From a virus, in the UHGV virus genome UHGV-1742202: 14,892 nt of DNA; one strand, written 5' to 3'. Made by a program: the position numbers. Below are positions 6,001 to 9,000 of this stretch, in pieces. Positions within the stretch are counted from its first letter, which is position 1, and each line of letters starts with the position of its first letter.

Positions 6001-9000
6001 ATGGGACTGCCGCAGTATCAGCAGCAAATTCAGCAGCAAAAAATTCAACAAGGGATTACCAGTTGGGCGGGTGATGATCCGGATAAGCAGGCATTTGCCA
6101 GAGAAGTGGCCTCCCGTCAGCCAGAAATGCTGGAGCCTCAGAATCAGAAATTGCTGGAACACGGGTATGCGAATTTTCTCCGTATTCAAAAGGCCAGGGG
6201 GGAACAGGCCAGGGATGATAGCGCGGCCTCTGCATCTGAGTTTATCCGTGGTCTGAAACAGAATTACGCGCAGTAATTCACCATTCCCGTTAATACTATT
6301 TCCTGATACCCGGTCATTGTGCCGGGTTTTTTTATGGAGTCTGTATGGCTTATTCCGATGAACAGCGCCCTGAAGCGCAATTTGGCAACCAGAGCCGCAA
6401 CAGCCTGAACATTCAGCAGCCGGGAGAGACTGACAGCTATGATGTGTTTTTCTCCGATCCCAATCGCTGGAAGGACAACAGCACGTCGTTCAGCCTGGGC
6501 GATGTATTGCCAACTATGGGGAAAGGTGTCGCCCAGTCCGTCCGGGGGACAGGGGAAATGGCCCGTGGACTCGGTGATGCGATGATTCAGAGCCCGGTAA
6601 AAACAGGGGCACGTATTTTAAATGAGTTCAGCCGTATGGGGCTGCCGGGAGTAGCAACTGTTCAGGATATTTTTGTCGGTGGCAGCAAGGGGGCGGATGA
6701 GGTCATCGACACTCTGCCTGATGGAAAAAATGCGGTTACTGATACTGTCGGTAAAGGTCTGAAGGTCACAGGCAAGGCAGTCAGTGGCGGCGCTAAAGCC
6801 TCGGATGAATGGCTGACTGGCAAGATGTCGCCGGGGGCGCAGCGGGCGCTGAATACACCGATGACTGAAGGATATGATGATTCAGCGGTCTGGGTAGCGA
6901 AAGGGGTTAACCTGATTGGTGCGCTTGTACCGGATATGGTTGCAGGCGGTGTGACTAAAAAGCTGGGTGATGTCACTCTGCGAAAAGTGCTGACCGCCGG
7001 GCTGGAGAAAAAATACATCGCGGCAGGGATGCAGCCGGAAAGAGCCACAGCACTGGCAGCCGAAGCTGTCGATAAAAAAATGCCGGATTTTTTCCAGGCA
7101 GGCCTGATCACCCATTCCACTGTCAGTGCGCAAGGGCGGAGTGCAATGGCAGCGGCAGATGCTGTTCTTAACGCGGATTATTCTGAGCTGGCGAAGTCAC
7201 CGAAATTTCAGCAGACCTTTTTGTCAATTGATGCAGATCCGCAGCACGCGCAGCTTACTGACCGCCAGAAAATGGACCTGGCAAAAGAGCGTGTTGCCGA
7301 TGAGGTGCGTGCGCAACTGGCAACCGATCCTGAATTGCTGGCTGTGAATGCCATGGCGGCAAAACTGGGCGATGCTCAGTTGCTTAATCTGGCGATGCGG
7401 GGCACGGCGAAGACCGTTAAAAGCGGCATTGTCAGAAATGCCACGGAACAGGGGACGATTAATGCGGCGCAGGGTGGCTATTCACGCTATCAGGAAAACA
7501 CGGCATTGCGTGAGACCGCCGGAATGGATGTGTCACCGTGGGAGGGCGTGGCTGACGCAACGATCGAAGGTGCAGCCCTTGGTGCTGCAATGGGGGCACC
7601 ATTCGGTGCGGCTGCCGGATATCGTGGAAAACGTCAGGCGGCAGATGAAGCAGCCATGCGTGAGGCTGAAAGCGTTCCTCAGGACGAATCGGCTCCGCAA
7701 CCCGAACCGGTTGATCCGGTGGCACAGCATCGTGAATCTATGCAGGGGATGAATCGCGAGCAGCTTCTGGAACAGTATGCTGATGCGGATATGGCACATG
7801 AGGGAGACACGTCTGCCGTTCATCGCCGGGAAGCCGCCAGCCAGCTGTTGAATGAACTGGATGAACAGGCGAAGCGACAGGCGGTGATGGATGAGCTGAA
7901 GGCGAAGCCGCGCCCTGAACTGCTTGAGGAATACCGAAAACTCAGCCAGAAGGAAGGGCGTACTGATACTGAAGAGCAGCAGTTACAGGCAATACGTGAT
8001 GTGCTTCGCCCTCAGCGGGAGGCCAGACCGGAGGCACAGCCACAGCCGGAAAATGCGGATGATGGCGACGGGAGTATTTACCCGACGGTGCGGTTCCGCG
8101 ATCCGGATGAAGTTCGTATTGAAATTAACGAGAGTGGTGCGTCCAGACCAGCAGAACGCATTGAAAAGGTGCGTCCGGACAACCGTTATTTCACGGATGA
8201 AAAAAGTGCTCTGGGGAGCGACGTTTTCCGCAATGCCAGCGCCACCGGCCTGAAACCGTCCGTAGTGAAGAAAGGCGAGAATCAGTATGCCGTTGAAATG
8301 GATAATCCTGCGTTCTCTGAAGATGTGGCAACGGAGACCATTAACACTCTGGCTGACGGAGAGCGTATTACTGATGCTGATCCGATGGAACAGCCCGCGT
8401 TCATGCGTGACCCGCGATTCCGTGGTTTTACGGGGGATGATACAGAAGTGCAGGCCCGTCTTGCCCGTGGCAACGCGCCGACGGCGGAAGAACTGGTGCG
8501 TTCCCAGATGGCTGAAGGTGATGCCGGTCCGACAGCACAGGAGTTAACTGAGCGTCCACGCCTTCCCGCTCCCGGCGATATTCATCCCGGACAGGGATAT
8601 CCGTTACCAGGAGAAGTGGCGCGTACGCCGGATGAAAATCAGGCCGGACGTGGTGGTCGTTTTACCACAACCGGTGAGGTGAAGGGCCAGAGTTTCCAGA
8701 AAGGACGTGCGCAGGCACCGGAAAATGCCGCTGGTCGCCAGGGGGAAATACTGGAGGGCGAAACAGTTCGTCGTGGTCTGCCGTCACCGGATGAGCAGAA
8801 CGCCACAGCACCAGTGCGTGAAGGACTTCCTGCACCTGAAAGTCAGCGTGGGGTTGATATGCCACAGCCTGAATCACTCCCTCGTATGGTTCGTGACTCC
8901 CTTCCGGAACTGGCACAGCAGGCAGAAGCACGCAGACAGACCGGGGATAATCGCCAGACCATAACCGATGTTCCGGATACTGAGGTGCCGGTGCCGGTAG

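Follow-up and report, generated by a model that had tools for sequence, protein, structure and literature searches.

A giant polyvalent protein and its acidic region

The window analyzed here, a 14,892-nucleotide (nt) stretch of the virus genome UHGV-1742202, comes from a short-tailed Shiga toxin (Stx)-converting phage of the 933W/phi24B type (Sepvirinae, Traversvirus), in which it covers the tail and accessory end of the late genes, and it carries a giant open reading frame (ORF) of 8352 nt on the + strand (6345..14696) that encodes a protein of 2783 amino acids (aa). Our subject is the part of this protein encoded by nt 7660-9000 (aa 439-886), which a first, sequence-only reading had taken to be a long acidic, low-complexity linker with short peptide repeats, serving as a disordered spacer between the modules of a polyvalent, ejected protein and perhaps as a site of proteolytic processing. 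We describe below a different anatomy, in which disordered spacers probably alternate with constrained elements, and what is new is that one stretch of the supposed linker is, by the ratio of nonsynonymous to synonymous substitution rates (dN/dS), the most constrained stretch of the whole protein.

From the ORF list, its translation, and matches to Pfam and PHROG, the giant ORF encodes a phage-type polyvalent or internal (ejection) virion protein, the ortholog of phi24B gp47. Pfam placed an LPD5 domain at aa 1047-1190 (1.7e-43), LPD1 at 1351-1430 (4e-23), MuF_C at 1740-1829 (1.4e-17), and LPD38 at 2466-2671 (3.4e-48), all above the curated cut-offs, and a match to phrog_616 spans the protein from end to end. 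Because of these matches, we assigned the giant protein to the phage-type polyvalent proteins as defined by Iyer et al. (2017, PMC5512222): it is a very large chain, here of 2783 aa, with several LPD and effector domains, encoded in a neighborhood of late virion genes. The sequence-only reading therefore named the class of the host protein correctly, and the detection of phi24B gp47 in virions agrees with it; the LPD5/LPD1/MuF_C/LPD38 polyvalent protein of the 933W/phi24B-like short-tailed Stx phages is a family that is already known. Full-length matches to the gene, at 90-96% nt identity, occur in 186 phage records. The DNA of the supposed linker has an exact counterpart (100% identity) in a chromosomal prophage of Escherichia coli NCCP15648 and is present in 424 of 5426 complete E. 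coli genomes.

The acidic region is flanked by other domains of the protein. On its N-terminal side lies an all-helical domain (aa 1-429; 6345..7631, + strand), for which AlphaFold2 predicted helices throughout, with a low to moderate predicted local distance difference test score (pLDDT), and which has no Pfam match. This domain is closed, directly upstream of the acidic region, by a Gly/Ala-rich hydrophobic helix at aa ~402-428 (nt 7548-7628; IEGAALGAAMGAPFGAAAGY), in which G413, G417, G421, and G425 are invariant across five genera in the family alignment in the manner of a glycine zipper; this helix may be a membrane-active element of the ejection protein. On the C-terminal side, conservation picks up again at KIEDFGEEIKGAAKHR (aa 896), and the boundary is formed by a pre-LPD5 helical domain together with LPD5 (9030..9914, + strand; Pfam LPD5), modeled at pLDDT 64-87 from aa 912.

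Composition and recurrent motifs

The claim of an acidic composition rich in E, D, Q, P, and R proved to be correct. Compared with the rest of the protein, aa 439-886 are enriched in E (11.8% versus 6.2%), P (9.4% versus 4.1%), Q (7.6% versus 3.9%), R (9.8% versus 7.6%), and D (7.8% versus 6.6%), so that these five residues together make up 46.4% of the region versus 28.3% of the remainder (z 8.5), and K, Y, and W are depleted (no W at all, and Y at 0.39-fold). Among all windows of 448 aa in the protein, the one with the highest E+D+Q+P+R fraction starts exactly at residue 439 and the most negative one (-33) begins at residue 433; the region has a net charge of -32, versus +32 across the remaining 2335 residues. 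Order-promoting residues make up 19% of the region versus 27-30% of the flanking domains, and in a charge-hydropathy plot the region falls on the disordered side, as an interdomain linker of disordered type would.

The region is not, however, of low complexity. A SEG-like scan (Shannon entropy in 12-residue windows, trigger about 2.2 bits) gave a mean window entropy of 2.94 bits, versus 2.99 in the rest of the protein, and found SEG-type low complexity in 2 of the 437 windows of the region versus 7 of 2335 elsewhere. Nor did we find the array of short peptide repeats that had been described. The three peptides on which that description was based are indeed present, RGLPSPDEQ at aa 810-818 (nt 8772-8798), EGLPAPESQ at aa 826-834 (nt 8820-8846), and ESLPRMVRDSLPE at aa 843-855 (nt 8871-8909), but Tandem Repeats Finder reported nothing over them (nt 8769-8910), returning only three tiny rows (20-28 nt at 8913-8940 and 15 nt at 8984-8998). 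The best pair of 9-mers in the region is identical at 6/9 positions, a score equaled or beaten in 130 of 300 composition-preserving shuffles (124 of them at 6, five at 7, and one at 8). What does recur above chance is a smaller motif. Pairs of 9-mers with at least five identities number 44 versus 19 +/- 7 in shuffles, the dipeptide LP occurs 4 times in aa 791-895 versus 0.79 expected (P 0.002), and LPxP occurs 3 times in the region versus 0.21 expected (P 0.0016); Salmonella homologs carry an LPxPE pair at the same place (ELPAPE/ELPRPE). The LP/LPxP motif is thus recurrent, although it forms no repeat array.

Six segments with different properties

Comparison with homologs from Salmonella (P0062-P0065 and P0070; 57-61% identical), Edwardsiella tarda (P0077), Pectobacterium (P0080), and Serratia (P0083) allowed us to divide the region into six segments, A to F, all read on the + strand. 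Structure was predicted with AlphaFold2 in two runs with alignments of 11-14 sequences, the first covering aa 1-1200 with a 14-sequence family alignment and the second covering aa 556-800, and dN/dS values are Nei-Gojobori estimates against the 933W-type and phi24B alleles. A search of Pfam (E up to 1) and of PDB sequences with aa 430-900 returned no domain or structure; the single match, to a xylanase at E 0.08, was taken as noise.

Segment A (aa 430-459; 7632..7721) is an acidic, proline-containing, variable spacer, as judged by composition, identity, and pLDDT. It has a net charge of -6 over 30 aa and is called disordered by the Uversky charge-hydropathy relation; its identity to 933W-type phages is 73% versus 93% for the N-terminal domain, it is 11 aa longer in Salmonella, and pLDDT stays below 50 over aa 409-455. 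Segment C (aa 556-575; 8010..8069) is a P/Q/E-rich spacer of the same character: it contains no hydrophobic residue, has 0% order-promoting residues and a net charge of -4 over 20 aa, scored a pLDDT of about 29, and is variable and indel-prone among homologs. Segment F (aa 791-895; 8715..9029), the variable P/E/Q-rich spacer that carries the LP motifs described above, is 24-33% identical to its counterparts in other genera, has indels ranging from -30 to +112 aa, and was modeled at pLDDT 26-35; its final ~90 nt are unaligned in most of the 12 E. coli prophage matches listed.

Segment B (aa 460-555; 7722..8009) is an ordered helical module by AlphaFold2 prediction, homolog comparison, and profile matching. 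The first run gave pLDDT 77-89 over aa 461-550, with helices at 458-466, 471-482, 489-519, 523-534, and 541-554, and on these grounds we regard the segment as predicted to be folded. Of the five genera, only Serratia lacks it (homolog P0083); it is conserved in Escherichia, Salmonella, Edwardsiella, and Pectobacterium. The pattern R..[LV]L..Y occurs twice in it, ~50 residues apart, in the window protein and in three divergent homologs (Salmonella, Edwardsiella, and Pectobacterium), and hhalign aligned the profile of unit 1 with that of unit 2 in register (P 3.6e-5, probability 71%); the duplication is visible at the profile level only, since a comparison within the single sequence was not significant (P 0.19). 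From the doubled pattern and the profile-profile match, segment B is probably a duplicated helical unit, consisting of two tandem units of ~45 aa (R..LL..Y...), and would then be a genuine repeat, unlike the LP peptides.

Segment D (aa 576-676; 8070..8372) is an insertion of ~100 aa private to the E. coli Stx-phage lineage, as shown by its absence from other homologs; 87 residues are deleted at this place in the Salmonella proteins, and neither exhaustive HMMER searches nor BLAST found any homolog of it. We also considered whether segment D is a rearranged form of a module seen farther downstream in the Pectobacterium and Serratia homologs (…GGYAVRLP) and rejected this (BLAST E above 0.5). Segment E (aa 677-790; 8373..8714) is a conserved motif cluster, defined by invariant columns, dN/dS, and distant homologs. 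Its motifs in the window are, in order, PAFMRDPRFRGF, APTAEELV..QM..GD.G, RPRLPAPGDIHPGQGYPLPGEV, and AGRGGRFTTTGEVKGQSF, for which the family versions are PA[FY][LM]R.[DE]PR..GF, P[TS]A.EL[IV]..Q[MI]..G..G, PRL[PT].PG ... [LM]PG, and AG.G..F..G..V.GQ.[FY]; the motif stretches include PAFMRDPRF, PRLPAPG, and GRGGRFTTTGEV.

Outside segment B, most of the region was predicted to be coil. The first AlphaFold2 run gave pLDDT 26-35 at aa 557-684 and 725-911 and no secondary structure over aa 555-684 and 736-912, with only short helices at aa 685-735 (pLDDT 44-55) before the confident domain that begins at aa 912. The second run proposed a weak arrangement of two helices, a beta-hairpin, and a helix at aa 614-670 in segment D (pLDDT 56-68) and weak structure at aa 685-735 (pLDDT 53-65), with coil elsewhere in aa 556-800. 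With these shallow alignments, then, the stretches devoid of secondary structure (pLDDT 26-40) are aa 557-613 and 736-911, and aa 461-550 are helical. On these predictions, a disordered linker would fit most of the chain, with its low pLDDT, and does not fit segment B, with its confident helices.

Could the apparent disorder be an artifact of shallow alignments and composition proxies, with the region being largely one or more novel folded domains? The family has few members (16 representatives in a set of 1.84 billion proteins), hence the 11-14 sequences available to AlphaFold2; the N-terminal domain scored low as well; the shorter run showed weak secondary structure in D and E; and the dN/dS of D is like that of folded domains. 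The spacers, however, do not resemble folded sequence. C lacks hydrophobic residues altogether, A, C, and F contain only 0-18% order-promoting residues, and lengths differ among homologs, by +11 aa for A and anywhere from -30 to +112 aa for F; moreover, neither run gave secondary structure at aa 557-613 or 736-800, and the first gave none on to aa 912. We therefore consider it very unlikely that the region is mostly folded.

Selective constraint and the conserved segment E

Constraint is distributed very unevenly over the six segments. The first 1200 aa contain 41 columns that are invariant in the 14-sequence alignment, and 22 of these lie within segment E, at aa 684-768. The identity of this segment (98% to the 933W type, 72% to Salmonella, and 40-46% to the giant proteins of Serratia, Pectobacterium, and Edwardsiella) equals or exceeds that of every flanking domain. 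Its dN/dS of 0.01-0.04 is the lowest of ten segments compared; the value is 0.09-0.23 for B, D, and the folded parts and 0.07-0.28 for A, C, and F. At 0.11-0.14, segment D is by this measure under purifying selection, and no part of the region evolves neutrally (dN/dS at most 0.28).

An exhaustive HMMER search of 1.84 billion proteins with aa 430-900 returned 16 representatives, all of the same giant-protein family, and all of the distant matches map to segment E; no relative of segment E outside the giant-protein family was found among the 1.84 billion representatives, and a profile search of a 5.8-billion set with segment E added only fragments. Homologs that retain segment E may be without LPD5, LPD1, or MuF_C, as is the case for distant ones from Edwardsiella, Pectobacterium, and Serratia (Edwardsiella P0077 has none of the three, and Pectobacterium P0080 lacks LPD5 and LPD1), whereas the N-terminal domain and LPD38 are always present. 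Because it is kept together with the N-terminal domain and LPD38 whatever the cargo, segment E is part of the constant chassis of these proteins rather than of their exchangeable cargo. Among the Salmonella proteins, P0070 has a 274-aa insertion between the regions of LPD1 and MuF_C (aligned to window aa 1431-1739), which points to exchange of cargo modules within the family.

These data bear directly on the simplest view of the region, that aa 440-890 in their entirety serve as a passive spacer of low complexity in which only length and flexibility matter. The strong E/P/Q bias, the net charge of -32, the mostly low pLDDT, the absence of any Pfam or PDB match, and the indels in A, C, and F are what such a spacer would show. 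Its entropy, however, is not low, and B is modeled as confident helices; the majority of invariant residues in the first 1200 aa belong to E, where dN/dS is also at its lowest; purifying selection acts on D; and dN/dS nowhere in the region exceeds 0.28. This view of the whole region is already largely refuted, and we consider it quite improbable. The alignment of homologs that the sequence-only reading had proposed as a check gave a divided answer: A, C, and F vary in sequence and in length, as a linker should, and B and E are conserved. Poor conservation of sequence and length is accordingly a property of A, C, and F (about 155 aa) and not of the region as a whole, and about 210 of its 448 residues, those of B and E, behave as ordered or conserved sequence and do not fit a linker, which is the outcome that the sequence-only reading had named as its own refutation.

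The divergence of segment F has a further aspect. Residues 791-1190 (nt 8715-9914), which comprise segment F and the pre-LPD5/LPD5 block, share only 62-72% aa identity among Stx phages, in contrast to 91-100% downstream of aa 1190 and 93.5% in the N-terminal domain. The synonymous substitution rate (dS) is about 1.0 in segment F and about 1.2-1.3 in the pre-LPD5/LPD5 block (0.9-1.3 overall) versus 0.15-0.37 in the rest of the gene. Since segment F and the LPD5 block share this high dS, aa 791-1190 form a diverged mosaic block that probably arose by recombination or allelic replacement, with its left edge at the junction of E and F.

Presence in phi24B virions and possible proteolytic processing

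Mass spectrometry of phi24B virions provides an experimental view of the orthologous protein. With 10,962 spectra, gp47 is among the most abundant virion proteins of phi24B, yet it is invisible in the cryo-electron microscopy (cryo-EM) maps; the authors suggested that it is an ejection protein enclosed in the capsid (bioRxiv 10.64898/2026.04.10.717836). The mass spectrometry shows packaging for the phi24B ortholog; packaging of the window protein would follow by orthology, and delivery into the cell is a proposal of the preprint.

We translated the phi24B gene and searched the peptide table of the preprint, which gives pooled peptide counts; phi24B numbering equals window numbering + 17 through segment E. 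Fully tryptic peptides were present from all six segments, with 28-163 spectra each: 457-480 (A), 513-528 (B), 569-600 (C/D), and 609-622, 647-659, and 660-689 (D); 692-708, 711-722, 726-736, 737-756, 757-777, and 790-797 (E); and 816-827, 828-842, 843-852, 856-864, 868-880, and 888-907 (F). Several peptides extend across missed cleavage sites (448-480, 569-600, 692-708, 737-777, and 828-852), the last of which, GLPSPDAQNATAPVREGLPAPDIAR, joins the first two LP motifs. With the gel bands ordered by the peaks of the portal, fiber, nozzle, and capsid proteins, gp47 counts were highest in the first-listed band (EA1805) and fell near-monotonically, without a discrete lower peak (2188, 1686, 1187, and 1260, then 663 in the band where the ~80-kDa portal protein peaks).

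These results weigh on the suggestion that the polyvalent protein is cut within the region into separate functional units, either while still in the capsid or once it has been ejected, and either by a head protease or by HExxH domains of its own. Autoprocessing of polyvalent proteins by zincin-like peptidases has been proposed, and P1 DdrB is processed (Iyer et al. 2017, PMC5512222). The giant protein contains two HExxH motifs, HEWFH at aa 1274 (nt 10164-10178) and HEIIH at aa 1541 (nt 10965-10979), an exposed disordered chain would be a good protease substrate, and gp47 counts trail through all of the gel bands of the phi24B preparation, which was six months old. No peptidase profile was among the Pfam matches of the giant protein, despite the two motifs. 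MuF_C is described as a metallopeptidase in the phi24B preprint (bioRxiv 10.64898/2026.04.10.717836) and as a PBECR RNase-like domain by Iyer et al. (2017, PMC5512222); because of the latter classification and because both HExxH motifs fall outside the MuF_C match, any candidate peptidase sites would lie outside MuF_C. Against processing, the virion protein shows no sign of lacking the region or of being split within it: peptides come from every segment, several cross missed cleavage sites, and the band counts reveal no discrete smaller product. The phi24B data thus give no sign of excision or stoichiometric cleavage in the virion and lend no support to processing sites in the supposed linker, and we regard processing of the region as unlikely. 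They would still be compatible with cleavage that is partial or that follows ejection, as Iyer et al. envisage for polyvalent proteins bearing HExxH motifs.

Segment E and a possible binding partner

The first motif of segment E prompted a comparison with the C-terminal peptide of FtsZ (DYLDIPAFLRKQ): by mimicking that peptide, the motif might anchor the ejected protein to FtsZ partners, such as FtsA or ZipA, on the inner membrane, or it might interfere with division. The Salmonella relatives carry DNLDIPAFMRD (DNLDIPAFMRDP), which matches the E. coli FtsZ C terminus (NC_000913.3) at 8/12 positions, a score reached in 0 of 300 shuffles, and Serratia P0083 carries EFRDIPAYLRQD (6/12, 24 of 300 shuffles). 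As in FtsZ, the motif follows a disordered P/Q/E-rich stretch, and its PA[FY].R core is invariant in the family. The copy in the window, however, DPMEQPAFMRDP, matches at 5/12, which is chance level (190 of 300 shuffles), and does not fit the D-[IV]-P-A-F-L-R core better than chance. The Ile of the FtsZ peptide, a key contact of ZipA, is missing from it. The resemblance was, moreover, noticed post hoc, the motif is internal here and at the extreme C terminus in FtsZ, and a literature search for FtsZ-peptide mimicry returned nothing relevant. Mimicry of FtsZ is in our estimation extremely unlikely. The likeness to the C-terminal linker of FtsZ is one of arrangement, a P/Q/E-rich, variable, disordered linker followed by a motif of the D-[IV]-P-A-[FY]-[LM]-R type; there is no homology elsewhere in the proteins.

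Colicin translocation domains, which are intrinsically disordered and contain embedded epitopes that bind TolB, TonB, or OmpF, offer another analogy. As is proposed for the giant protein, a long unstructured chain passes a narrow channel and short conserved epitopes stand between variable spacers; the difference is that there is no sequence similarity and no TolB or TonB box, so that the comparison is an analogy only. By this analogy, segment E might be a linear-motif docking element that captures a partner during or after passage through the tail, for example by FtsZ-peptide mimicry directed at FtsA or ZipA, a specific function to which we would assign little chance.

A probable composite tether between modules

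Taken together, these results suggest that the region is a composite intermodule tether of a virion-packaged polyvalent (ejection) protein, made up of disordered spacers (A, C, and F) and constrained elements (B, D, and E), and we hold this to be probable. Segments A (430-459), C (556-575), and F (791-895), totaling about 155 aa, would be disordered, net-acidic, indel-tolerant spacers, and they would string together B (folded and probably duplicated), D (a lineage-specific insert), and E (a motif cluster), about 310 aa of constrained sequence. The original idea of a spacer between functional modules therefore survives for about a third of the region, which lies between the N-terminal helical domain and the first LPD domain, and not for one spacer of 450 aa.

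In such a tether, the spacers would keep a chain of roughly 300 kDa extended, soluble, nonadhesive, and electrostatically repelled from the packaged DNA, and they might ease its threading through the portal and tail channel. Segment B would be a small structural module. Segment E, because it co-occurs with the N-terminal domain and LPD38 whatever the central cargo, may serve as a docking or recognition element of the constant chassis that folds on binding; candidate partners would be other virion proteins, a different stretch of the giant protein itself, and host factors.

Several observations weigh against a composite tether. The call of disorder is based on composition proxies and on AlphaFold2 with 11-14 sequences. 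The charge-hydropathy proxy places all six segments on the disordered side, the predicted helices of B included, and it also calls the folded LPD5 domain disordered, so that composition proxies are not specific for disorder; likewise, the N-terminal domain has low pLDDT in the same run, which means that low confidence is not specific to disorder either. Because of the shallow alignments and the low-scoring N-terminal domain, we take the AlphaFold2 assignments of order and disorder as indicative rather than decisive. Segment D has near-average hydrophobicity and a dN/dS like that of folded domains, and it may be a domain that AlphaFold2 failed to model. Between Stx phages, the dN/dS of segment F (0.21) equals that of the adjacent folded LPD5 block, and its divergence among these phages owes as much to the recombined block as to relaxed constraint. 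The virion evidence comes from the ortholog phi24B gp47, which is 93-98% identical in B, D, and E and less so in A, C, and F. Finally, the roles in threading and charge repulsion are inference, and any partner of segment E is hypothetical.

Neighboring genes

Upstream of the giant ORF, PHROG matches identified an internal virion protein, a tail fiber, a small outer-membrane protein, a membrane-associated protein, and Lom, in a gene order that is syntenic with Traversvirus genomes. Compared with phage phi296, the window lacks ~2.38 kb at 5225-5237 (L001 4515 joins 6892), a gap that falls between Lom and the gene preceding the giant ORF. Absent with it are a MokW-like ORF, several small ORFs, an ORF annotated as a bacteriocin, and the first ~90 codons of a gp48-like gene. 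The gp48-like gene (ORF 5284..6276) is 330 aa long in the window versus 421 aa elsewhere, and its phi24B counterpart has been seen in virions. Inside the giant gene, an alternate-frame ORF (7348..7752, + strand, 134 aa) was considered as an overlapping gene and rejected as noise; its phi24B counterpart (50190-50591, frame 3) accounts for 2 of the 71,304 spectra in the virion proteome.

Relation to known systems and significance

The closest known system is phi24B gp47 and the 933W-type giant ORF of the Sepvirinae, orthologs with the same architecture and gene position and 93-100% aa identity outside aa 430-459, 556-575, and 791-1190. The window allele is 2783 aa long, versus 2806-2811 aa in the phi24B/933W type, and differs in segment F and the pre-LPD5/LPD5 block (dS about 1). 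The published phi24B work describes the domains of the protein and not aa 430-900. More broadly, phage-type polyvalent proteins such as P1 DarB and N4 vRNAP are giant products of late genes that travel in the head and enter the cell along with the DNA, and they combine LPD domains, HExxH peptidase-like motifs, and MuF-C/PBECR modules, as the window protein does (PMC5512222). That survey deals with globular domains, and term searches of it found none of the words "linker," "disordered," and "low-complexity"; segments B and E, which have no Pfam match, are not among the named polyvalent-protein domains, and a literature search for 933W together with polyvalent proteins returned no paper, just as one for virion proteomics of Stx phages returned nothing relevant. 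Disordered tethers in which conserved elements are embedded are nothing unusual, and what is new is the dissection of this one.

A tempting annotation, that of a featureless linker of low complexity, is thereby corrected, and nothing in the published virion proteomics points to excision of the stretch. Shiga toxin genes are carried mainly by short-tailed Stx phages, whose internal protein of roughly 300 kDa is the least understood component of the virion; the organization of the internal protein is listed as an open question in the phi24B cryo-EM preprint (bioRxiv 10.64898/2026.04.10.717836). The dissection indicates where the linkers of this protein could be cut or swapped, and it singles out the ~115 residues of segment E as the obvious target for mutagenesis and for the search for a partner.

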